DNA of 64,000 nt from Candidatus Sulfomarinibacteraceae bacterium (GTDB lineage Bacteria > Acidobacteriota > Thermoanaerobaculia > Thermoanaerobaculales > Sulfomarinibacteraceae). Position 1 is the stretch's first letter. Each line of letters starts with the position of its first letter. The DNA lies in NCBI GenBank assembly GCA_963741385.1, contig CAVUHO010000003.1, positions 435,935 through 499,934 on the forward strand, given 5' to 3'. A program made the translations under genes and the position numbers. Below the pieces are notes generated by a model. That model worked only from the letters and a program-made list of their open reading frames with translations, searched no databases and had not been told where the DNA came from. Below, piece after piece: positions 2,756 through 62,144 of the stretch.

Positions 2756-3975
2756 TGGCGGGTCACAGCTGGGCTGCTGAGCAGTTCGAGATGGTTCATA
2801 CCGTATTGAATGCACCGCGACGACTCGGAAAAGCCGAGGGCTCGGCCCGTCTCCTTGTGTTCGCCCAGAGCGCTGGCAACGGGCACCAACCCGTCGCCGA
2901 TCAGGCGGTCCGCCATGAAGCCTCGTCTGGAGGCTGTGGTCGCGGCCACCGTGTAACAGGCCACGCCCTCGGGCAGGGGAACGACCTGGCGGGTGTCGGG
3001 TGAGTGTTCAAAGCGGTCGCGCCCCTGCCAATCCTCCTCCAGCAGGTGGCCGTATCGGAGATCGGTGATGCCGGCGCTGCGCAGCGCGCCAAGCTTCGTG
3101 AAAGGCGCTGTGTAGGGCGTGCTGCCCAGCACCACATCGACCCAGTTTCCGGCCTTTTCCAGAGGGGCGCCGTGGTGCGGTGTGCCGAGAAACACGATGT
3201 TCATCAGGTGGTCCGGCCAGCTCATGCCCTCCCGGTTGGCGGCGTGGATGGCGCTGCGGATCAACAACCCGCCCATGCTGTGGGCGAGGACGGTCAATTC
3301 TTCGACCGCCACCGGCCAATGAGTGACCAGTTCCTCGAGTCGGGCCGCCAGCTCGCGGCCGTTTTCCGATGTGTGCAAACCGGAGTTGTAGCGGACCGAG
3401 ATGGGAGTGTATGCGAGGGCCACGGCCACCGCTTCGCCGTGGTCGACCACGCGCCCCTCGTTGTGGGTGTGCCACTGAAGATCGTTCATGCAGAGACCGT
3501 GGATGAGCACCAGGATCTTGCCCGTCGCCTCGGGCATCGACGGCGGGGTCTGCCAATCCAGAACCTCACCCCGGTAACGGAGGGTCATCGGGGTCGCGAA
3601 CGGGTTGTCATCGGCGAGCAGGCGGTCGCCCATCACGCCGTTGAGCGCCGCGAGGACGGCCTCGCGCTGAGGTGACTCGATTTCGGATTCATCGTCGAAA
3701 TCGACGAGGCTCTCCAACCGCGCCAATCCCGCGTCCACGCCTTGACCGACAAGCTGCGTGATACTCCGAATGTTCCCGTAAACGGCGCCGGTGATGCCGC
3801 CGGTCCGCCCCGGCTGATCTCCGCCCGGAAACCCGAGGGTGCTCCACACCGATTGGTGGACCCCTTCGACGATTCCGGTCACGCCCTTGGTGGCCTGCGT
3901 CGCCAGCCGGGCGAGGCCTCTGAGGTCCGAAACCCGCAGGTGTTTGAGAGGATCGAAAGATGTCGGTTTGGACAC
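2716..3975 (-). CDS. alpha/beta hydrolase (lipase/esterase-like)
   Basis: 419 aa with the nucleophile elbow LAHSMGGL, then FLGTPHHGAP. GTG start. Confidence 0.8.
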   Translation of the reverse strand: MSKPTSFDPLKHLRVSDLRGLARLATQATKGVTGIVEGVHQSVWSTLGFPGGDQPGRTGGITGAVYGNIRSITQLVGQGVDAGLARLESLVDFDDESEIESPQREAVLAALNGVMGDRLLADDNPFATPMTLRYRGEVLDWQTPPSMPEATGKILVLIHGLCMNDLQWHTHNEGRVVDHGEAVAVALAYTPISVRYNSGLHTSENGRELAARLEELVTHWPVAVEELTVLAHSMGGLLIRSAIHAANREGMSWPDHLMNIVFLGTPHHGAPLEKAGNWVDVVLGSTPYTAPFTKLGALRSAGITDLRYGHLLEEDWQGRDRFEHSPDTRQVVPLPEGVACYTVAATTASRRGFMADRLIGDGLVPVASALGEHKETGRALGFSESSRCIQYGMNHLELLSSPAVTRQILLWLRPAATGW

Positions 3976-7409: not shown

Positions 7410-7411
<2 letters not shown>

Positions 7412-7449
7412 CGTTCGAACGTTCAATCGTTTGGACGTTAAACGTTGGA
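7410..7449. repeat. tandem ~8-nt AACGTTYR array (about 5 units) directly after the pyrG stop
   Basis: AACGTTCG AACGTTCA ATCGTTTG GACGTTAA ACGTTGG. CGTT recurs at 7412, 7420, 7428, 7436 and 7443. Confidence 0.8.
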
Positions 7450-7472: not shown

Positions 7473-8306
7473 ATGATGAGCCAGGGCTTCGAAATCGTTG
7501 AAGGCATCCGGATCGGCGGCGGCGCCAGACCGGTCTATCTCGCAGGGCCGTGCGTCGTCGAGTCGCGGGACTTCGTCGTCGATGTCGCGGGCAGGGTCGC
7601 GGAGATCGCCGCCCGCCGCGGCGTGCCGCTCGTTTTCAAGGCCTCCTACGACAAGGCCAACCGCTCGTCCGAGTCGGGCTTTCGCGGATGCGGGGTTGAC
7701 GAGGGTCTCGAAGCGCTGGCCCAGGTCAAGAGGGTCACCGGTCTGCCGGTGATCACCGACGTCCACCACCCCGAGCAGGCGGCAGTGGCGGCGGCGGTAG
7801 TCGACATGCTCCAGGTGCCGGCCTTTCTGAGCCGTCAGACCGACCTCCTGCACGCGTGCGGCGCCACAGGTCTTCCGGTCAACGTCAAGAAGGGCCAGTT
7901 CCTGGCCCCCGAGGACATGGCCAACGTGGTCGAGAAGGTGCAGGCCGCGGGCAACAGCCGGGTGGTTGTGACCGAACGCGGGACGACCTTCGGCTACCAC
8001 AACCTGGTGGTGGACATGCGGGGCCTGCCCATCATGCGGCGGTTCGCCCCGGTCGTTTTTGACTGCACCCATTCGTTGCAGCTGCCCGGCGGGCTCGGCC
8101 ACGCCACCGGCGGGGCGCGCGAGTTCCACCCCTACCTGGCGCGGGCGGCGGCCGCTGCGGGCGCCGATGGATTCTTTATCGAGGTCCACCCCGATCCCCC
8201 CAACGCCCTGTCGGATGCCGCCACTCAGCTCTCGATCGACGAGTTCGACAAGTTGATCGGTCAGCTCGAGGCGGTGTCGGCGGTCGTGCGGGAGGTCGCA
8301 CCGTGA
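7473..8306 (+). CDS. kdsA: 3-deoxy-8-phosphooctulonate synthase (KDO-8-P synthase)
   Basis: FEIVEGIRIGGG..PVYLAGPCVVES...FKASYDKANRSS...DVHH...FLSRQTDLL...NVKKGQF is the KdsA pattern. Start reset to ATG 7473, because the track ORF begins inside pyrG. Confidence 0.93.
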   Translation: MMSQGFEIVEGIRIGGGARPVYLAGPCVVESRDFVVDVAGRVAEIAARRGVPLVFKASYDKANRSSESGFRGCGVDEGLEALAQVKRVTGLPVITDVHHPEQAAVAAAVVDMLQVPAFLSRQTDLLHACGATGLPVNVKKGQFLAPEDMANVVEKVQAAGNSRVVVTERGTTFGYHNLVVDMRGLPIMRRFAPVVFDCTHSLQLPGGLGHATGGAREFHPYLARAAAAAGADGFFIEVHPDPPNALSDAATQLSIDEFDKLIGQLEAVSAVVREVAP

Positions 8307-9259
8307 GCCGCGAGGTGGCGCTTCAGGTGCTGGAGGCCGAGGCCAACGCGATCCGCCATCTGATGGAGAACCTCGGCGAGGACTTCGATCGCGCGGTGGA
8401 GCTGATCGACGGCTGCGGCGGCCGCGTGGTGCTGACCGGGATGGGGAAGTCGGGCATCATCTGCCGCAAGATCGCCGCGACCATGCGGTCGACCGGGACA
8501 CCGGCCATCTTCATGCACCCGGCCGAGGCCATCCACGGCGATCTGGGAATGGTCGCAGGTGGAGATCTCGTGGTCGCCATCTCGAACTCCGGCACCACCG
8601 ACGAGATCCTCAACCTCGTGGCGGTGCTGCGACGGATAGGGGTCGTTCTGATTGCCATCACCTCGAACCCGGACTCGCCGCTGGCCACCACAGCCGATCT
8701 CCACCTCGACGTGGGTGTACGGCGCGAAGCCTGTCCCATGAACCTGGCGCCGACGGCCTCGACTACCGCCGCCCTCGCCCTCGGTGACGCCCTGGCGATG
8801 TCGGTGTCGGTCAAGAAGGGATTCAAGGAGGAGGATTTCGCGCGTCTCCACCCGGGTGGCAAGTTGGGCAAGAAATTCCTCAGGGTGCGCGACCTGATGC
8901 ACACCGGCGACGAGGTCCCGCGGGTCGAGACCGGAACGGTGATGAAGGACGTCATCTACGAGATGAGCCGCAAGGGGCTCGGCTTGACCACCGTCCAGAA
9001 CCAGGAGGGCCTGCTTCTCGGACTGGTCACCGATGGCGATTTGCGGCGGCTCATGGAACGGGACCCGGACCCCATGGCGCGGACCGCCGGTGAGGTCATG
9101 CACCACGGCGGCGCCTGCATTCCGCCGGACGAACTCGCGACCGCGGCGCTGCGCCTCCTGGAGGAAAAACGCATCACGTCACTCATGGTGAGCAACCAGG
9201 GGGAGCCGGTGCTCGGCGTGCTCCACCTCCACGATCTGTGGGGAGTAGGATTATTTTGA
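8303..9259 (+). CDS. kdsD: arabinose-5-phosphate isomerase (KpsF/GutQ family; SIS plus tandem CBS)
   Basis: SIS motif VVLTGMGKSGIICRKIAATMRSTGTPA, with tandem CBS domains at the C-terminus. GTG start overlaps the kdsA stop (GTGA). Confidence 0.9.
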   Translation: MSREVALQVLEAEANAIRHLMENLGEDFDRAVELIDGCGGRVVLTGMGKSGIICRKIAATMRSTGTPAIFMHPAEAIHGDLGMVAGGDLVVAISNSGTTDEILNLVAVLRRIGVVLIAITSNPDSPLATTADLHLDVGVRREACPMNLAPTASTTAALALGDALAMSVSVKKGFKEEDFARLHPGGKLGKKFLRVRDLMHTGDEVPRVETGTVMKDVIYEMSRKGLGLTTVQNQEGLLLGLVTDGDLRRLMERDPDPMARTAGEVMHHGGACIPPDELATAALRLLEEKRITSLMVSNQGEPVLGVLHLHDLWGVGLF

Positions 9260-9374
9260 TTTCGGATTTCGGATTTCGGATTTCGGATTTCCCGACCGCC
9301 CTCCCACCACTTCTGAACATCGGGCGGGTGGGGGACAAATCCGAAATCCGAAATCCGAAATCCGAAATTCCGAC
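9258..9374. repeat. composite element copy 1: (GATTTCG)x4 - 45-nt GC-rich core - (AAATCCG)x4, arms mutually complementary
   Basis: Read directly from the sequence. The first unit overlaps the kdsD stop codon. Core: CCCGACCGCCCTCCCACCACTTCTGAACATCGGGCGGGTGGGGGAC. Confidence 0.9.
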
Positions 9375-9386
9375 CCGGAAGGTCCG

Positions 9387-9890
9387 ATGCGCCTGACCAT
9401 ACTGACCACCGGCGGCACGATCGACAAGACCTATGATGAGCTGCAGGGCAGCCTGCGCAACGTCAACTCGATTCTCGACGTGATCCTCGACGAGCTGCGC
9501 ACGCCGGACCTTTTCATCCGGCACGTCGACGTGATGCACAAGGATTCGCTCGACATGACCGAAGAGGACCGGCAGATCATCGCCAAAGCGGTTCGAGACG
9601 CCGTCAAGAACTCCGACGCGGTGATCATTCTCCACGGCACCGACACGCTCGAGGAGACCGGTGACCTCCTGTGCAGCGAGATCGGCGACCTCGAGGTTCC
9701 GGTGATTCTCACCGGCGCCATGCGGCCGTACGAGTTTCGCGACACCGACGCCGTGCAGAATGTCACCGAGGCCCTTCTGGCGGCGCGGTTGCTCGAGGGC
9801 GGGGTCTACGTCGTGATGCACAATCGGGTGCTGCGCTTCCCGGGCGTTACCAAGGACCGGCAAGCGCTGACGTTCGTGCAGAAGGACTGA
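9387..9890 (+). CDS. single-domain L-asparaginase-like protein (N-terminal catalytic domain only)
   Basis: 167 aa with asparaginase signatures TTGGTIDK, HGTDTLEET and LTGAMRP. GGAAGG RBS. No C-terminal asparaginase domain. Confidence 0.75.
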   Translation: MRLTILTTGGTIDKTYDELQGSLRNVNSILDVILDELRTPDLFIRHVDVMHKDSLDMTEEDRQIIAKAVRDAVKNSDAVIILHGTDTLEETGDLLCSEIGDLEVPVILTGAMRPYEFRDTDAVQNVTEALLAARLLEGGVYVVMHNRVLRFPGVTKDRQALTFVQKD

Positions 9891-9895
9891 CCGGG

Positions 9896-10010
9896 TCGGA
9901 ATTTCGGATTTCGGATTTCGGATTTCGGATTTGTCCCCCACCCGCCCGACGTTCAGAAGTGGTGGGAGGGCGGTCGGGAAATCCGAAATCCAAAATTCGA
10001 AATCCGAAAT
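9896..10010. repeat. composite element copy 2: reverse complement of copy 1 with only a few mismatches
   Basis: GTCGGAATTTCGGATTTCGG...GTCCCCCACCCGCCCGACGTTCAGAAGTGGTGGGAGGGCGGTCGGG...AAATCCGAAAT. Aligns base-for-base to the reverse complement of 9258-9374 except for about 5 positions. Confidence 0.9.
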
Positions 10011-10541: not shown

Positions 10542-10667
10542 AGCAGATCCTGGAGGGCGAGAATGTGACGGAGGTGACGGCACCTCCACCGCACGCGGCA
10601 CGTTTCCGCACGCGCTACCCGAGAGGAGCCACTCGGTCCCACCCTGAGCACTCGGGCGTTTATTGTC

Positions 10668-10720
10668 GGTGGGGGGTTGGGTGGAAAAATCCGAAATCCG
10701 AAATCCGAAATCCGAAATTC
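10668..10720. repeat. solo half-element: G-rich core remnant plus (AAATCCG)x4 arm
   Basis: GTCGGTGGGGGGTTGGGTGGAAAAATCCGAAATCCGAAATCCGAAATCCGAAATTC. There is no left arm. It abuts the helicase stop codon (10724). Confidence 0.85.
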
Positions 10721-14427: not shown

Positions 14428-14459
14428 AATTCAAAATTGAGAATTCAAAATTCAAAACT
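14428..14459. repeat. heptamer array AATTCAA AATTGAG AATTCAA AATTCAA AACTC
   Basis: 7-nt periodicity read directly from the sequence. The same unit type occurs at 21562-21599 and 54769-54797. Confidence 0.85.
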
Positions 14460-14497
14460 CTCAACTGAACGGCGCCGAACAGCGCCGTTCAGTTGAG
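14460..14497 (-). terminator. perfect 16-bp hairpin overlapping the pentapeptide-gene stop, followed on the minus strand by a T-rich heptamer tail
   Basis: CTCAACTGAACGGCGC-cgaaca-GCGCCGTTCAGTTGAG. On the minus strand it is followed by AGTTTTGAATTTTGAATTCTCAATTTTGAATT. Confidence 0.6.
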
Positions 14498-15550
14498 GTA
14501 GTACTCCTGAAGCATCGTCAGCAAGACCGCCTCCCGGTCCGCCGGCCGGACCAATGGGTCTTCTTCGATCTGGGCGCGGAAGCCGGCCACGATCCGCGGG
14601 TCGACCATTTCCAGCACGTCCTCAGGGCGGGAGATACCGCCTTGACGGCGCAGCGCGGCGGCCGTGCCCGAGGGCAGCCCATCGGTGTTGACGAACCACG
14701 CCCTCTCGGCCTTGCCGGGCTCGATGCGGGCGCCGGTCAGGTTGGCCCCCGTGAGGTTGACGTCGTGCATGCTTTCCACGTCGCCGAAGTCGGACCCGAC
14801 CGCCGAGGCGAGGGTGAAGTCGGCGCGGTCGAAGCGCGCAGACGGGAACTTCGAAGCAAAGAGGTTGGCCTGGGCGAGCTCGGCGCCGGCGAAGTTGGCG
14901 AGCGTGAGGTCGTCGAGCTGGGTGAGGGAAGCATCCACCAGCACGGTGTCCTCGAAGACGGCGCCCACCCCGTGGATTCCGGTGAGGATTGCGCTGGACA
15001 GCACGGCCTGATTGAACGAGGCGCGGCTGACGTCCGCGTTCTTGAGATTGGCGCGGGGCATCTCGGCGAGTCGGAAGTTGGCGTCGGACAGATTGCAGTC
15101 CGAAAAATCGGTGCCCGTGAGTTCGGCCCCCGAAAAGTCAGCGGCCCGGAGATCGAGCCCCGACAGGTCGCGGTGGGCAAGGTTGTAGGTCAAAAAGTGG
15201 GTGGCCCTGCGGAGGGCGTTGAACTGACTGACGTCGCCGTTGCGCAGCAGGGTCATCGCGTAGTCCATGTGGTGAGCATAGAGCCGCGGCATGTACTGGA
15301 GGGCGAGGTAGTGGCTGAGTTCGAACGGGACTCCGTCTTTCATGGCGTTGGTCGCCGCCGCCAACTCGTCCTCCAGCAGGGTGGCTATCTCGTCGATCTG
15401 GTGGTTGTGGAAGCTGCGTTGGAGATGGTTGACGCGAAGCAGGCCATTGACCTCGTTGTACGCCATGGAGCCGACCGCGGTCGCCGCGATGCCCAGAATG
15501 AAGCCGAAGATCATGCCTTCCCAACGCCCCAATCGATCGATGAAGGTCAT
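14489..15550 (-). CDS. pentapeptide-repeat protein with N-terminal TM helix
   Basis: Long A(D/N)LxG-type repeats (LSGLDLRAADFSGAELTGTDFSDCNLSDANFRLAEM...). N-terminal helix MIFGFILGIAATAVGSMAY. Start reset to ATG 15550 after AAGGAGAA. Confidence 0.85.
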   Translation of the reverse strand: MTFIDRLGRWEGMIFGFILGIAATAVGSMAYNEVNGLLRVNHLQRSFHNHQIDEIATLLEDELAAATNAMKDGVPFELSHYLALQYMPRLYAHHMDYAMTLLRNGDVSQFNALRRATHFLTYNLAHRDLSGLDLRAADFSGAELTGTDFSDCNLSDANFRLAEMPRANLKNADVSRASFNQAVLSSAILTGIHGVGAVFEDTVLVDASLTQLDDLTLANFAGAELAQANLFASKFPSARFDRADFTLASAVGSDFGDVESMHDVNLTGANLTGARIEPGKAERAWFVNTDGLPSGTAAALRRQGGISRPEDVLEMVDPRIVAGFRAQIEEDPLVRPADREAVLLTMLQEYYLN

Positions 15551-15575
15551 GGCGGTTCTCCTTGCGACGATGGTA

Positions 15576-15637
15576 GCAGGAGGGCGGGGGAGCGGGGGAG
15601 AAAGGGAGAAAGGGAGAAAGGGAGCAGGGGAGAGGGC
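15576..15637. repeat. polypurine ~8-nt array (GGGAGAAA-like, about 6 units)
   Basis: GGGGGAGC GGGGGAGA AAGGGAGA AAGGGAGA AAGGGAGC AGGGGAGA. GGGAG recurs every 8 nt from 15596 to 15632. Confidence 0.85.
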
Positions 15638-15669
15638 TGCCGGGATGGGAAGCACCTGAATACGAAACC

Positions 15670-15800: not shown

Positions 15801-16694
15801 TCAGGGCTGTTGTCGGCACGGCTCGCTGAGGATCCTGGTCTCGATGATCTTGGTCGGCAGGAGCTTGTGCATCACCAGCTTTGCAGTGTACATGTCCTTC
15901 ATGGGACCGATGCGAAGCTTGTACAGCGGAAGCACACCGTCGTCTTCGACGGTGATGACTTCTTGTTGAAGGAGAGGAAATCCCAACTCGTCGAGTTCGG
16001 TTTGGGTGGTCTCAACCAGTTTGAGATCGCTGGTCCGGAGCACCTGCACCCAGTACCAGAGGCACGGGGACTCTCCTGCCGGACCGCTCGCCGCGTTCGA
16101 TGAGCCGCCGCCTTCGCTCGTTGGTTCCTCTGAGCCGGTCGTGACCCTCTTATTGGCGAAGTCCACCTTGATCCGAGCGGGCGCATCGGGCGTGACAACG
16201 ACCTTGGTCTGAAGCAGCGCCCCGAACCTCTCGAACCACAGGTTGTGCTCACCGGCTGGAACGTCGAGGATGGTCACGAGCGGCTCTTCCTTTTCGGTCC
16301 AACGATTTCCGATTCTCAATGTGCAGTCCACCGGTACCGAGGTGACCTCGATCCTTCCGACCGGTTTCTCGTCCTTGTTCGTCGAAGTGCCCCCTTCAAC
16401 GCTGAAGGTAGGGCGCGGTGACAGCTCGCCGACCACGATCTGCTGTGAGATCACGCCGACAACCACCAGGAACTCCGCGGGCAGGAAACCGTTCTTTTCG
16501 ATCCTCACGGTGTGGTTGCCAGCGCTGAGCTCCGTGAGACGCTTCCCGTTCGCCGCCGATTCGCACATCCCGGCGCGCGTCCCGTCGAGGAAGATCTCAA
16601 GCCCGGGCGGGCACGTGAGCAGCACATCTCCTGCATTCGCCGAAGCGATCATGCCGAGGCACAAAACCAACGAAATCAACCGGGCAGCCCGCAT
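15801..16694 (-). CDS. secreted PEGA-domain protein with C-terminal SPOR-like domain
   Basis: Signal peptide MRAARLISLVLCLGMIASANA. PEGA-like segments (LEIFLDGTRAG; HTVRIEKNGF; CTLRIGNRW). C-terminal YWVQVLRTSD...LYKLRIGPM resembles SPOR. Start reset to 16694 after GGGAGG. Confidence 0.65.
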   Translation of the reverse strand: MRAARLISLVLCLGMIASANAGDVLLTCPPGLEIFLDGTRAGMCESAANGKRLTELSAGNHTVRIEKNGFLPAEFLVVVGVISQQIVVGELSPRPTFSVEGGTSTNKDEKPVGRIEVTSVPVDCTLRIGNRWTEKEEPLVTILDVPAGEHNLWFERFGALLQTKVVVTPDAPARIKVDFANKRVTTGSEEPTSEGGGSSNAASGPAGESPCLWYWVQVLRTSDLKLVETTQTELDELGFPLLQQEVITVEDDGVLPLYKLRIGPMKDMYTAKLVMHKLLPTKIIETRILSEPCRQQP

Positions 16695-17015
16695 TGGATC
16701 CGACCTCCCACGGTGCGCCGACCTCAGCGCACCCGATTTCCGCCGACTGATAATAACTCCGCCGCGATGGTGTCTGGACGGGTCAATCCGTGAATCTTCC
16801 AATGCCACACCGTTCCCGACACACCGACAACTCGAGAACGACTCTGACCCTGGGCTGACCTGCAAACCCCTCCGGGCACGGCACCTCGCTGCCCTCGCGA
16901 CGGAACCCGGCGAGAAATGCAGGCCAAAACCCAACCGGTCCGCTCGGTTTGTGGGTCCGACGCAGGGTAGGTTTCAGCCCAGGGTGCGGGGACGTGAGGC
17001 CCTGTTTGCGGTACC

Positions 17016-19277: not shown

Positions 19278-19363
19278 TGATGATCGGCACCACCCTCGGC
19301 CATAACCGCATCCAGGCGCTGCTCGAGGAGTGCGATGCGCCGTTCAAACGTGAAACGTTCTAG
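19277..19363 (+). pseudogene. second kinase 5' stub (28 codons), start overlapping the kinase stop
   Basis: MMIGTTLGHNRIQALLEE... The DNA ACCCTCGGCCATAACCGCATC compares with the kinase ACCCTCGGCCACTACCGCATC. The stub is cut off by the AACGTT array. Confidence 0.35.
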
Positions 19364-19376
19364 CGTTTGAACGTTG
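19341..19376. repeat. AACGTT-type ~8-nt array containing a 9-bp inverted repeat GTTCAAACG/CGTTTGAAC
   Basis: CGTTCAAACGTGAAACGTTCTAGCGTTTGAACGTTG. Same unit family as 7410-7449. Confidence 0.75.
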
Positions 19377-19491
19377 CCCACCCACCCGGCAGGCGGGACG
19401 CCTGCCCCACAAAGGCCCCGGCGCTACATTTCTGAATATGCGATCGGTCTCAAGCCCCAGGCCTTTTTCGTGTTCGGCATGGCCGGACATG

Positions 19492-21099: not shown

Positions 21100-21480
21100 A
21101 TGAAGAAGATATTTCTCGTTTTGTTGTGTCTTGGTGTGGTTGTTGGATGCAAGTCGACGGTGACGACTCCGGAAGGCACCGATGCGCAGTACAGCACGGC
21201 CGAGGGCGTGATGCGGTCGACGCTCCCGGGCGCCATGCCGGACGTCGTCAACGCGACCACCGCCAGCCTCACCGATCTCGAGCTGGTCGCCATCGACAGC
21301 ACCGTCGACAAGCTCAAAGGCAAGATCACGGCGCGCATGGCGGTCGGCACCAAGGTCACGATCAACCTCGAGGCGGTCGACTTCTCAAGCACCTCGATCA
21401 AGATCAAGGTCGGGACCTTCGGCGACCGCTCGATCTCGCTGCAGATCCTGCAGAACATCGAAAAGAGACTGGGGAAATAG
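21100..21480 (+). CDS. lipoprotein (DUF3568-like)
   Basis: MKKIFLVLLCLGVVVGC contains a lipobox. Length 126 aa. The track ORF is over-extended upstream. Confidence 0.7.
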   Translation: MKKIFLVLLCLGVVVGCKSTVTTPEGTDAQYSTAEGVMRSTLPGAMPDVVNATTASLTDLELVAIDSTVDKLKGKITARMAVGTKVTINLEAVDFSSTSIKIKVGTFGDRSISLQILQNIEKRLGK

Positions 21481-21599
21481 TTCGGAATTCGGAATTCGGA
21501 ATTCGGAATTTTTCCACCTGCTCTGAACGGGTGGATGTTGAAGCAGGTTGGATGCTTCCATAATTCAAAATTAAGAATTCAAAACTCAAAATTGAAAAA
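21481..21599. repeat. composite element: (TTCGGAA)x4 - core with CCACC..CTGAAC..GGTGG hairpin - (AATTCAA/AATTAAG/AACTCAA/AATTGAA) array
   Basis: Read directly from the sequence. The core TTCCACCTGCTCTGAACGGGTGGATG resembles the core of element 9258-9374. Confidence 0.85.
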
Positions 21600-21625
21600 G
21601 CCCCCGCAACACGAGGTGCGGGGGC
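21595..21625 (-). terminator. intrinsic terminator of fadA (minus strand)
   Basis: GCCCCCGCA-N8-TGCGGGGGC. On the minus strand it is followed by CTTTTTCAATTTTGAGTTTTGAATT. It lies 22 nt after the fadA stop. Confidence 0.75.
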
Positions 21626-21647
21626 TTGGTGTATAGCTCTGTCAGCC

Positions 21648-22811
21648 TTATGCCATCTCTAAAAGATAGGCGAACCCCATTCCGCCGCCAATGCACATGG
21701 TGACGATACCGCGTTTGCCGCCGCGGCGTTTGAGCTCGCCGAGGATCTTGACGGTCAGCACGGCGCCGGTGGCGCCCAACGGGTGGCCGGTGGCGATGGC
21801 GCCGCCGTTGACGTTGGTCTTTTCGGGGTCGAGCCCGAGCTCCTTGACGCAGTAGACCGACTGGCTGGCAAAGGCCTCGTTGATCTCGATCAGGTCGATG
21901 TCGCCGAGTTTGAGACCGGTCTTTTTGAGCAGCTTTGGAACCGCTGCCGCGGGACCGATCCCCATGACATCCGGGTCGACGCCGGCCACCGCCCAGTGGC
22001 GCACGAAGGCGATCGGCGGCAGCTCCATGGTGTCTGCCACGTCGTTGCCCATGATCACGACCGCCGCGGCGCCGTCGTTGATCTGCGAGGCGTTGCCGGC
22101 GGTGACCGTTCCCATGGGGTCGAACACAGGCTTGAGCTTTGCCAGACCCTCGACGGTGGTGTCGGCTCTCGGCCCCTCGTCGACGTCGAAGTGGATGTCG
22201 CGCCAGGCGCCATTTTCGCGGACGCGGACATCGAGCGGCACGATCTCGTCGGCGAACTTGCCCGACTCGAGAGCCGCGACCGCTTTCATGTGCGAGTTGT
22301 AAGCGAACTCATCCTGGGCCTCGCGGGTGATGCCGAAACGCTTGGCCACCACCTCGGCGGTCGTGCCCATCGCGGCATAGGCGTTGGGCATGGTTTCCAT
22401 GAGGCCGGGGTAGGCGATGGGTTTGTTGCCGCCCATGGCGACCATCGACATCGACTCGACGCCGCCGGCAATGATGATGTCGGAGTTCCCAGCTCTGATC
22501 GTGTCGGTGGCGAGGGCGATGGTCTGGGAGCCGGAGGAACAGAATCGGTTGACGGTCATGGCCGGTACCGAGGTCGGGAAACCTGCGGCGAAGGCGATGA
22601 GCCTGGCCACGTTCATGCCCTGTTCGCCCTCGGGCATGGCGCAGCCGAGGATCACGTCATCCACAGTCTTCGGGTCGAGGCCGGGTGTTCGGGCCACCAG
22701 GGCCTTGATCATCTCGGAGGCAAAGTACTCGGGACGGGTGTCGCGCAGGCTGCCCTTCTTGGCCCTGCCGATGGCCGTGCGGGCTGCTGAAACGATGACT
22801 GCTTCGCGCAT
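21648..22811 (-). CDS. fadA: acetyl-CoA C-acyltransferase (thiolase)
   Basis: 387 aa. [23 protein letters not shown] (active-site Cys), [28 protein letters not shown]. Confidence 0.95.
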
Positions 22812-42112: not shown

Positions 42113-43537
42113 CGCCTTGGCGTCCTGACGTTCAAACGTTTCCCGGTGGCGAACTTGTGCGCGGTGCAGCCAGGGCCGCCAGGTGGGAGACGACTCCAGC
42201 AGCTGCATGACCGTTGTCGGCGCCACTCCGCGTTCGCGCAGAGTTTCGACAAAGGTGGGCAGCTCTTCCCAGGGAGCCTCATCGCGGTCGGTTGCCAGAT
42301 GCATGAGAACGATGCCGCCATGAAGCTCGGGAAACCGCAGCAGACGGTCCATCATGGTGGATGAATTCTGGTACATCGACGAGTGTTCGTTGGCCACCCA
42401 GTCCCGTGAATCCAGGGAGGCGCCCTCCAGGGAGCTCCAGCGAACGTGCAGGTATCCCGTCTCCAGAGCCCACCCGCGGAGGGTGCTGTTCTCCTCGCCG
42501 TAGGGCGCCCTCCACAGAGGCGCCATCGGCCTTCCCGTGGCCTTTCTGAATGCCTGCTCGGTCCTGCGCAGCTCGTTTTGAAACCGCTCGCGGGTGATGC
42601 CGGTTTGCAGGTTGTGGCGACGGTCTTGCGCATACGTGGTGAGGTGGGGGTGAGAGAACGTGTGGTTGGCGACTTCATGGCCGGCGAGCACCGCTCGGCG
42701 AACGACTTCCGGGTAGCGTTCGACGAATTGACCGGTCACGAACAACGTGACCTCCAGGTCGAGGTCGTGCAAGAGGTCGAGCAGCTCTCCGGTTCGGTTG
42801 GACGACGAGTTGCCATCGAAGGTCAACGCGATGTGCGGTCCCGCGTCGGCTACCAACTGCAGAACCGGCGGCGACAGGGCGGGAGTCGGTCCAGCCGCCG
42901 CGACCCGGCGGGCCACCGGGTCGAGCGTGGCAGTTGGCCGCTCAACGGGCGTCGGTTGCGAAATGCCGGTCGGGCTCGGCGCCGCTGGAAGCACGATGTC
43001 GAGGGTGGGTTCGGACAGGGCGACGAAACGCAGCGAGCCGCTGTCGTCAACCGAAAGCGGGATCGACGACTCGGTGGCGCCTTCGGCGCCGATCGTGAGC
43101 ACCCTCGACGGTTGTTCATTCACCAGCACCAACACCTGCGTGCCGGGACGGCCCTCGACCCGTACGACCCGGCCGTGGTCGCCGTTGACGACCGTGGCCG
43201 TGAAGGTCGGTCGCAGGGTGGGTTCTGACTCACTCGAGTCGTCGGGACCGCTCAACGCGATCAGCTCGGCGATATGGAGGCCGATAACGGTCAGCAGGGC
43301 AGCTGATACGGCGGCGGTGACCGCCAGGACCCAGACGGGATGGAGAGGTCGGCGCGCGAGCCTCAAGCCGTCGAGGAAAAAACCCTTTGAAAGACCTGCC
43401 AGCCGGCACTTCCGGCCGCAGTAGACGTGGCTGCCGAAGCGCTGAACACAGGCCTCGCAGAGCCATTTCCGGCAGCTGTGACAGCGTTGACCGGCTTCCT
43501 TCGAAGGATGGTTGACGCAGGGGGAGGTTACCCGCAT
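42104..43537 (-). CDS. polysaccharide deacetylase (NodB domain) with N-terminal B-box-type zinc finger and TM helix
   Basis: CVNHPSKEAGQRCHSCRKWLCEACV..HVYCGRKC. The NodB region reads IALTFDGNSSSN...TLFVTGQF...GHEVANHTFSHP. Confidence 0.85.
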   Translation of the reverse strand: MRVTSPCVNHPSKEAGQRCHSCRKWLCEACVQRFGSHVYCGRKCRLAGLSKGFFLDGLRLARRPLHPVWVLAVTAAVSAALLTVIGLHIAELIALSGPDDSSESEPTLRPTFTATVVNGDHGRVVRVEGRPGTQVLVLVNEQPSRVLTIGAEGATESSIPLSVDDSGSLRFVALSEPTLDIVLPAAPSPTGISQPTPVERPTATLDPVARRVAAAGPTPALSPPVLQLVADAGPHIALTFDGNSSSNRTGELLDLLHDLDLEVTLFVTGQFVERYPEVVRRAVLAGHEVANHTFSHPHLTTYAQDRRHNLQTGITRERFQNELRRTEQAFRKATGRPMAPLWRAPYGEENSTLRGWALETGYLHVRWSSLEGASLDSRDWVANEHSSMYQNSSTMMDRLLRFPELHGGIVLMHLATDRDEAPWEELPTFVETLRERGVAPTTVMQLLESSPTWRPWLHRAQVRHRETFERQDAKASR

Positions 43538-54690: not shown

Positions 54691-54814
54691 GAATTCTCAA
54701 TTATGAATTCTTAATTTTGAATTCCCGCCCGCCCACCCCCAAGGTGCGGATCGCTGCGAAAGGGTGCCGGAATTGAGAATTCATAATTCAAAATTGGAGG
54801 GGCGTGAGCCCCTC
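54691..54814. repeat. composite element: AATT-type heptamer arms (imperfectly complementary) around a C-rich core, followed by GAGGGGC-gtga-GCCCCTC hairpin
   Basis: Left arm GAATTCT CAATTAT GAATTCT TAATTTT GAATTCC. Core CGCCCGCCCACCCCCAAGGTGCGG.... Right arm GGAATTGAG AATTCAT AATTCAA AATTGG. Hairpin at 54797-54814. Confidence 0.85.
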
Positions 54815-61807: not shown

Positions 61808-62144
61808 CAAGGTTTACAGGTTCCAGGTTGCAGGATCCAGGTCGCCGGTTTCAGCTCTGAAGGTGGGCCAAGGCCCACCACCCTCAAGCTGTCATCCCGA
61901 CCGAGGGAGCGAAGCGATCGAGTGGAGGGATCCCTCCGCTGCGGCCCTCCGGGCCTCCGGTCGGGATGACAGGAATTGCGACTGCCTTCGGAATGAAAAC
62001 GACCCGAGAGAATTACCTCTTCCGAGTCGTTCCTGTGGTGCAGGCGTCCCGCCTGCACGTGCGGCCGGGACGGCCGCACCAAAATGCTCCCGTGTATCAG
62101 CGGCTACCCAAGCCCCAAGCCCCTCAAGCCTCAAGCCCCAAGCC
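61808..62144. repeat. 340-bp compound repeat region: CAGGTTN heptamer array, several GC hairpins, an 84-bp element with 15-bp terminal inverted repeats, and a CAAGCCC-type heptamer array
   Basis: Left array 61808-61846. Hairpin GGTGGGCC-aa-GGCCCACC at 61862-79. Inverted repeat CTGTCATCCCGACCG (61889-903) / CGGTCGGGATGACAG (61958-72). Tandem hairpins at 62038-58 and 62059-79. Right array 62107-62144. Confidence 0.85.

Follow-up and report, generated by a model that had tools for sequence, protein, structure and literature searches.

In the analysed 64,000-nucleotide stretch of DNA, termed the window hereafter, a partly decayed foldback with arms made of 7-base repeats separates a lipoprotein gene from a thiolase gene. 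The composite module flagged at this site is probably two neighbouring things, namely the terminator of the fadA-like thiolase gene and, beside it, a cargo-less and partly decayed foldback belonging to a stem-forming heptamer-array class. Members of this class would be constructed from two complementary arrays of about four to five heptanucleotide units, with a tip formed either by a G+C-rich hairpin or by a small gene. The class is not new, as inverted heptamer arrays (PMC4692102) and the heptamers of intervening sequences (PMC4990558) have already been published. The association between heptamer foldbacks and genes of the PF05635 family is a more interesting lead than the target locus itself.

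The foldback and the fadA terminator

The window has a G+C content of 63% and is enriched in period-7 arrays: eight were found, and each of the other periods between 4 and 12 gave zero to three. The flagged module is located between two convergent genes and consists of the following parts, listed together with its neighbours:

21100-21480, plus strand: DUF3568 lipoprotein gene, 126 aa, lipobox LGVVVGC (translation; Pfam PF12092, E=8.5e-18)
21481-21510, plus strand: left arm, (TTCGGAA)x4.3 (TRF period 7, 100% matches, score 60)
21511-21561, plus strand: core of 51 nt (folds, motif search)
21562-21598, plus strand: right arm, AATTCAA AATTAAG AATTCAA AACTCAA AATTGAA (TRF period 7, 5.3 copies, 76% matches)
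21598-21627, minus strand: fadA intrinsic terminator hairpin, 11-bp stem (8 of its pairs G-C), loop of 8 (terminator scan)
21648-22811, minus strand: thiolase gene, fadA-like, 387 aa (ORF list; Pfam PF00108/PF02803 on homologs)

The left array is perfect and begins at the very next base after the TAG stop of the lipoprotein gene (21478-21480), and the units of the right array are degenerate. The sequence statements of the original prediction on the arrays, the core and the hairpin all hold in the TRF analysis and the terminator scan. Absent from that account was the reverse complementarity of paired arrays, seen at the other loci and in part at the target, by which an element makes one long foldback. 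In the core, CCACCTGCT (21514-21522) pairs with AGCAGGTTGG (21543-21552) in the predicted folds. This is the pairing that is kept, while the proposed CCACC/GGTGG pairing is lost in the closest relative, L001, where GGGTGG has become GAGTAG. The target core carries the motif CCACC-N3-TCTGAAC, which is also found at 9304 and 9951. A motif search of the window located CCACCNNNTCTGAAC exactly at 9304, 9951 and 21514, and with at most one mismatch it gave four matches versus 0.39 expected, a number reached in none of 100 shuffles; the shared motif that had been noticed in this core and in the elements at 9258 and 9896 is accordingly beyond chance. The description of the core as conserved-looking was not supported, since it aligns only with the core of L001 (87% identity, versus at most 62% to any other core) and has a 15-nt motif in common with the 9258 and 9896 elements.

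When folded alone as RNA, the target foldback has a minimum free energy of -37.0 kcal/mol (z -4.1), and none of 200 shuffles folded as well. In the predicted stem, small internal loops interrupt the pairing between four GAAUUC blocks of 6 bp each. The foldback is the structure of lowest free energy as RNA, but with DNA parameters another structure of the target outranks the long-range pairing. The consensus units of its arms are complementary at 5/7 positions, as are those of L001, whereas 6-7 of the seven positions are complementary in 26 of the 28 foldbacks collected, which comprise at least 15 different units. The low complementarity thus marks the target as a decayed copy. These 28 foldbacks come from Acidobacteriota, Chloroflexota, Deinococcota, Rhodothermales (Rhodothermota, once placed in Bacteroidetes), Bacteroidota (Riemerella), Cyanobacteriota and Pseudomonadota, and the typical arm length among them is four to five units. 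Where a unit deviates in one arm, the other arm deviates to match it, as exemplified by L086, where GGAATGAGG is matched by CCTCATTCC.

On the minus strand, the hairpin at 21598-21627 together with its T-rich tail is an ordinary intrinsic terminator of the thiolase gene, and its earlier recognition as an intrinsic terminator was correct; it is a good one for fadA. Its arms are GCCCCCGCA and TGCGGGGGC, enclosing a loop of eight nucleotides, and the hairpin starts 20 nt after the fadA stop. The minus-strand tail in the scan window is TTTCAATTTT, and TTTTTCAATTTT follows directly after the hairpin; the complement of the right arm (21562-21598) supplies this T-rich tail. At the equivalent place, a hairpin with another stem sequence occurs in L001, L002 and L083-L091. 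Distant orthologs have a terminator with a T-tract of its own, and a spacer of some 20-25 nt lies between this terminator and the right arm. This spacer has gone in the target lineage, so that the right arm doubles as the T-tract. The separate terminators of distant relatives also imply that the fusion of array and terminator is lineage-specific and that the terminator does not need the array.

No Rfam family matched anywhere in the window at the gathering threshold, rRNA families included, and permissive Rfam searches of four stretches returned sub-threshold matches only (such as Esr41 and eukaryotic miRNA precursors), which reflect hairpin shape or terminators. Nothing was found in favour of tRNA-like or riboswitch readings. 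The idea that the 7-nt units provide stop codons in all three frames was rejected, as the TTCGGAA and GGATTTC arrays are stop-free in every frame.

Heptamer loci in the window and in the slot of relatives

The original prediction of a family with the architecture of a 7-nt array, a G+C-rich core and a second 7-nt array, with units specific to each locus, proved to be real. Its count of at least seven loci was generous, because the window holds four complete foldbacks, two half elements and a seventh locus (61817-62144) that is doubtful. The intergenic placement holds within the 64-kb window. Apart from the target, the loci are as follows:

9258-9373, no strand assigned: complete foldback, (GATTTCG)x5, 44-nt core, (AAATCCG)x5
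9896-10010, no strand assigned: complete foldback, an inverted copy of the 9258 element (cores 98% identical as reverse complement)
10640-10718, no strand assigned: half element, CCCACCC...GGGTGG core followed by (AAATCCG)x4.6, without a left arm
14428-14497, minus strand: half element, AATTCAA-type array against a 16-bp G+C-rich hairpin (z -6.3)
54691-54796, no strand assigned: complete foldback, (GAATTCT-like)x4.9 and (AGAATTG-like)x4 as A+T-rich arms
61817-62144: doubtful locus with G+C-rich units

The element at 9258-9373 is an intact example, with a continuous 30-bp array stem running into the core stem to give about 36 pairs (minimum free energy -78.5 kcal/mol, z -7.4), and it takes up the spacer that separates a SIS/CBS-domain gene from an asparaginase-like gene. 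The elements at 9896-10010 and 54691-54796 have the same foldback build; the former adjoins the stop of the asparaginase-like gene, just 3' of it, and the latter immediately follows a TGA stop and precedes a small G+C-rich hairpin. All four complete elements of the window begin 0-5 nt past a stop codon. The half element at 10640-10718 has a complete counterpart, termed E3, at the syntenic site of L002, and the half element at 14428-14497 reads on the minus strand as a hairpin with a T-rich tail after the gene at 14489-15655. The AATTSAR units reported at 14428 and 54769 are present.

The junction between the lipoprotein and thiolase genes was recovered from eleven relatives (L001, L002 and L083-L091), and orthologs of the DUF3568 lipoprotein gene are present in L001 and L002. 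A foldback composed of an array, a core and an inverted array occupies the slot in nine of the eleven, counting L088, which has no core:

L001 (thiolase 93% identical): core 87% identical, right arm with one substitution, left arm of five units TTCGGAT/TTCGAAT versus four TTCGGAA in the window
L002 (thiolase 91% identical): core of about 170 nt between perfect GGATTTC/GAAATCC arms, right end AAATTGAAA plus hairpin as in the window
L083, L084, L086, L087 and L090 (lipoprotein 68-77% identical): AGGAATT/AATTCCT arms, CCCACCC...GGGTGGG core of 46-48 nt
L091 (lipoprotein 65% identical): core of about 110 nt between short arms
L088 (lipoprotein 73% identical): collapsed to three units, no core
L085 and L089 (lipoprotein 70-72% identical): contigs end inside the left array

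Each of the slot elements of the relatives folds into a hairpin, and in the distant set (L083-L091) the stop codon falls within the first array unit. They differ from one another in unit sequence, in copy number and in the length and orientation of the core. The predicted differences in copy number were therefore observed, the left arm having four units in the window versus five in L001, and arm lengths elsewhere ranging from 3.3 to 8.7 units. These comparisons reveal that array length shifts in whole units, that substitutions propagate along an array, and that the core can be replaced, lost or flipped. The cores of L083 and L090 fit those of L084, L086 and L087 better as the reverse complement in five of six comparisons; for L083 the identity is 0.81-0.86 as reverse complement versus 0.56-0.67 direct, and for L090 the flip is weaker, with 0.73 versus 0.61 against L084 and about equal values against L086 and L087. 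Any function of the core must consequently be independent of orientation, or absent. The cores of other loci have composition in common and are 60-70% identical, and a single covariance model of the core is ill-defined, because cores flip between orthologs and align poorly between loci. Among the matches listed by a thiolase scan of the genome collection, four Acidobacteriota/Thermoanaerobaculia relatives at 75-83% identity have no arrays at the slot and another downstream neighbour; at 83% identity, the thiolase loci have a different neighbour and a plain terminator.

PF05635 genes and heptamer arrays

The foldbacks of L015 (Thermoflexus) and L078 (Deinococcus) enclose an ORF of about 130 aa that belongs to PF05635, a family named '23S rRNA intervening sequence protein', with an Avd-like four-helix bundle. 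A local profile search of the collected loci revealed that six of seven PF05635 genes are bracketed by inverted short-unit arrays, and ten PF05635 genes from plasmids comprised eight with inverted arrays, one with direct arrays and one unclear case. One of these eight lies inside an Azospirillum 23S rRNA gene and is a genuine intervening sequence with inverted heptamer arms; several other plasmid PF05635 genes are found between cas genes and co-oriented with them. On viral contigs, a period-7 array was detected at most 200 nt upstream in 24 of 41 distinct PF05635 genes versus 21 of 370 control windows, and a complementary downstream partner array accompanies 14 of the 24 array-bearing genes. 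PF05635 genes are usually bracketed by heptamer arrays, a genuine 23S rRNA intervening sequence included. The literature searched held no statement of a general association between PF05635 and heptamer arrays, and a profile search of the window detected no PF05635 ORF.

The 23S rRNA intervening sequences are insertions in helices 25 and 45 that are cut out by RNase III, some of them with an S23p/PF05635 ORF. To our knowledge, more than 30 years have brought no origin or function for these sequences and the S23p/PF05635 protein, and we know of no accepted explanation for the heptanucleotide repeats, reported since 2007 to be the most over-represented long simple-sequence repeats of many bacteria. 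The target locus and its relatives link both puzzles, since the foldback occurs in mRNA spacers, in operons with PF05635 and in rRNA. If the link holds genome-wide, it would provide a testable account of both, in which foldbacks are RNase III-processed insertions tolerated in transcripts, possibly with a protein partner; it would likewise flag the arrays as breakpoints of metagenome assemblies and as shufflers of small gene cassettes. A bolder version is conceivable, and we put it forward tentatively as a doubtful proposal: all heptamer foldbacks, from cargo-less ones to 23S rRNA intervening sequences, would form one class of insertion elements within host transcripts, with PF05635 as the trans-acting partner and the cargo-less copies as non-autonomous derivatives. 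A pentameric, Avd-like PF05635 protein might then bind the approximately five 7-nt units of an arm, and such a partnership, if true, would explain the long-noted excess of heptamers in bacterial genomes.

Origin, function and kinship of the foldbacks

The most likely role of the foldback is that of a double-stranded RNA stem in a 3' UTR. Transcription would make the element part of the lipoprotein mRNA as its 3' UTR, and pairing of the arms could there give a long double-stranded stem. The stem of an intact member, about 30 bp long, may be an RNase III-type substrate, by analogy with the heptamer stems of 23S rRNA intervening sequences, and it would set or shield the mRNA 3' end and spare the host transcript any harm from the insertion. 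The target, with its 6-bp GAAUUC blocks and internal loops, is probably a weak and decaying version in terms of the predicted fold.

An account without any function is that of neutral simple-sequence repeats, in which polymerase slippage expands the heptamers, in many bacteria the unit length most prone to it, wherever they lie in non-coding DNA, and intrastrand template switching at palindromes keeps the arms complementary. In many bacteria, no long simple-sequence repeats are commoner than heptamers (Mrazek 2007, as summarised in PMC4679880). Units and copy numbers drift, cores flip, and the target has decayed with no obvious consequence, all of which would suit such repeats. Folding energies of the sense and antisense strands are equal across 27 elements, and no G-U enrichment was found on the sense strand of the same 27 (141 sense versus 159 antisense); given this symmetry, nothing shows selection on RNA over a DNA palindrome or a purely mutational origin. 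We nevertheless consider the neutral account unlikely, because the architecture persists at the slot though the lipoproteins are only 65-77% identical, the arms are confined narrowly to about four to five units in several phyla, and slippage alone does not predict the PF05635 association (24/41 versus 21/370 controls).

The probability of a MITE-like, non-autonomous mobile element, with the arrays as terminal inverted repeats and PF05635 in the autonomous or cargo form, appears to be somewhat lower again. Cassettes are present or absent between arrays in close relatives, which speaks for mobility: the window at 19335-19385 is the empty form of a site built of AACGTT-containing 8-mers, at which L001 harbors a PF05635 cassette of 840 bp, bounded by terminal inverted repeats of 12 nt and with a duplicated 8-bp unit around it, and L002 harbors pentapeptide-repeat genes. 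A variable linker of FadB in L015 contains an in-frame insertion of a cargo-less foldback, and this foldback has a 20-nt arm, including a variant unit, in common with a PF05635 element 1 kb away; moreover, the two contigs of L085 and L089 break inside arrays. The 9258 and 9896 copies are 98% alike, yet just 0.6 kb apart. Against mobility, no transposase or recombinase is associated with the elements, the heptamer elements show no clear target-site duplication, the loci of one genome have different units and inheritance at the slot is vertical. The cores are not decayed PF05635 genes either, as a six-frame profile search gave nothing better than E=5.

A further proposal, that of a protein-binding DNA array with the tandem 7-bp units as cooperative binding sites, seems improbable. 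The omega repressor and the parS heptads of pSM19035 provide a precedent for cooperative binding of this kind. The regular 7-bp spacing, the four to five units and the paired, inverted layout resemble such sites, as do the pairs of Geobacter metallireducens (PMC2700814). A single sequence-specific binder is, however, unlikely for units that vary among the loci of one genome and among orthologous slots, and the elements lie past stop codons rather than at promoters. The originally proposed module in which slippage of copy number sets terminator strength or promoter spacing is very improbable: despite a copy number that varies among relatives and a right arm that serves as the terminator T-tract in this genome, termination depends only on the first few T residues past the hairpin, the unit adjoining the hairpin is identical in the window, L001 and L002, the varying arm is the one far from the terminator, other orthologs have a terminator with its own T-tract 20-25 nt off the array, and no promoter-like site was found inside the module.

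The preferred reading, a stem-forming foldback of paired heptamer arrays, was compared with several known systems. The claim that the loci are unlike REP/BIME, CRISPR and microsatellites was sustained for REP/BIME and CRISPR and has to be qualified otherwise, as the heptamer pairs of Xanthomonas are published. REP/BIME/REPIN elements are similarly intergenic, about 100 nt long, hairpin-forming, variable, often located just past stops or near terminators, and candidates for stabilisers of mRNA 3' ends. They differ in that the REP arm is a conserved imperfect palindrome with many near-identical copies and ties to the RAYT transposase, whereas the arms of the target class are tandem 7-nt arrays with locus-specific units, and its cores are 60-70% alike except between orthologs. 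CRISPR was rejected, as the units are 7 nt long and directly tandem and the Rfam match is at chance level (E=3.1).

In Geobacter metallireducens, tandem 7-9-mers are paired on opposite strands, including paired sites of five tandem heptamers, and the paired sites of classes 1-3 occupy dozens of intergenic places (PMC2700814). These sites and the elements described here have three to five tandem 7-9-nt units, opposite-strand pairs at variable distance and an intergenic location in common. The Geobacter sites have one consensus per class and have been proposed as global-regulator or IHF/HU sites, whereas the units here vary by locus.

In the 23S rRNA intervening sequences, as in those of Azospirillum and Coxiella, terminal inverted repeats likewise form a long stem with heptamers in it and a variable tip; cargo is optional, the copy number of the stem heptamers varies, and both kinds of element would be part of a host transcript. 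The Coxiella intervening sequence contains GACAGAT repeats that vary in number by strain, and RNase III cuts at the first of them (PMC4990558). Unlike the intervening sequences, the target resides between protein-coding genes (in a putative mRNA 3' UTR), has no ORF and forms an imperfect stem, and a role of RNase III is suggested by analogy.

The inverted pairs of Xanthomonas are also similar. Xanthomonas campestris and X. axonopodis (X. citri) each contain about 185 GGGAATC arrays, with 70-75 inverted pairs, and the arrays, mostly of four units, are found closer to the upstream ORF and vary in length at conserved positions (PMC4692102). Both there and here, tandem 7-nt units in about four copies are found in intergenic DNA near the end of the upstream ORF, two opposite-strand arrays are often able to form a stem-loop (the arms of the target being complementary at 5/7 positions, those of orthologs and other loci at 6-7/7), and the place is kept among relatives while length and sequence vary. 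In contrast, the Xanthomonas units contain GGG and have been studied as G-quadruplex formers (Rehm et al. 2015), and the present host is an uncultured, Thermoanaerobaculales-like member of the Acidobacteriota whose element has a G+C-rich core hairpin between the arms. A G-quadruplex reading was excluded here, as the arrays contain no GGG and the units TTCGGAA, GGATTTC, AGGAATT and AATTCAA are without G-runs. In Xanthomonas, too, a heptamer array adjoins a gene of the PF05635 family, since the start codon of XCC0516, which encodes a PF05635 protein (PDB 2GSC), is overlapped by a GGGAATC array.

Core orientation and related foldbacks

At the slot orthologous to the target foldback, where two complementary heptamer arrays (the arms) enclose a core, the orientation of the core was found to be opposite in the relatives L083 and L090 versus L084, L086 and L087. 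The core of L083 aligned with those of the latter three at an identity of 0.81-0.86 as the reverse complement versus 0.56-0.67 in the forward direction; L090 is a weaker case, with 0.73 versus 0.61 against L084 and about equal values against L086 and L087. Recombination of one inverted arm with the other would be expected to flip the core in this way.

A small asparaginase-like gene carries a foldback on either side both in the window (9258-10010), where the two foldbacks are inverted copies of 98% identity, and in the close relative L002 (19432-20235), the unit being AGGAATT in L002 versus GGATTTC in the window. In Thermoflexus (L015 2165-2248), an 84-nt heptamer foldback with AGTGCTA arms is inserted in frame into a variable linker of a FadB-like protein, which thereby gains about 28 residues that are missing in homologs, reminiscent of the Rickettsia palindromic elements. 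Furthermore, two metagenome contigs of relatives terminate within a heptamer array, L085 at position 1008 and L089 at position 2080, suggesting that array copies are frequent enough in these genomes to interrupt assembly.

PF05635 genes bracketed by arrays

A period-7 array was detected upstream of 24 of the 41 PF05635 genes on viral contigs, versus 21 of 370 control windows. The genes of this family (23S rRNA intervening sequence or Avd-like four-helix bundle) usually have inverted tandem arrays on both sides, whose period is nearly always 7 and whose unit is different for each element; they share the orientation of the adjacent genes and often lie directly 3' of a stop codon. This observation draws on the five loci listed here and, further, on L092-L100 and L102-L144.

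PF05635 loci
L015 (Thermoflexus), 3266-3716
L078 (Deinococcus), 7943-8388
L019, 1456-1961
L044, 6885-7500
L026, 1160-1625

In Azospirillum lipoferum 4B plasmid AZO_p2 (L097, NC_016586.1 13792-15330), the insertion is spanned by the Rfam LSU model and is therefore a genuine 23S rRNA intervening sequence, which harbors a PF05635 open reading frame and whose stem consists of inverted heptamers (consensus ACAGAGG / TCTTCTG). On the cyanobacterial plasmids L093, L096 and L098, PF05635 genes have cas6 and cas4, or else cmr2 and cmr3, as their neighbors on either side and share the orientation of these, a placement that may be the reason for the listing of the family as cas-associated. The flanking arrays in L096, (AAAAGCT)x15 and (AAAAGCC)x9, are direct, not inverted.

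A syntenic site in three states

One syntenic site is present in three states in close relatives: empty in the window (19335-19385), with AACGTT-type 8-mer arrays joined; occupied in L001 (13437-14305) by a PF05635 cassette of 840 bp, whose terminal inverted repeats measure 12 nt; and occupied in L002 (13792-15048) by pentapeptide-repeat genes. In two Acidobacteriota relatives, L001 (13640-13765, ATGGTCACCTCCGGGTCGTTCA...TGAACGACCCGGAGGTGACCAT) and L004 (4480-4590), the PF05635 start codon is closely preceded by an inverted repeat that is both long and perfect and that may represent a structured leader.

Other short repeats of the window

Intergenic regions repeatedly contain a second small palindrome, GCAGGCGTCCCGCCTGC (window 19389-19405 and 62040-62056; L001 13404-13420), which gave 4 strand matches versus 0.07 expected with one mismatch allowed. 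Further arrays and pairs are the following.

Additional short repeats (window positions)
61817-62144, 265 bp flanked by G+C-rich arrays of CAGGTTC-like and CCCAAGC-like heptamers
7410-7439, AACGTTCG 8-mers directly 3' of a stop codon
15584-15633, (GGGAGAAA)x4.8 in the spacer between genes 14489-15655 and 15801-16934
42127-42140, additional AACGTT pair

The 265 bp enclosed at 61817-62144 contain a long inverted repeat, CTGTCATCCCGACCG...CGGTCGGGATGACAG, and a GGGCTTG array was also found in L002 (13457-13500).
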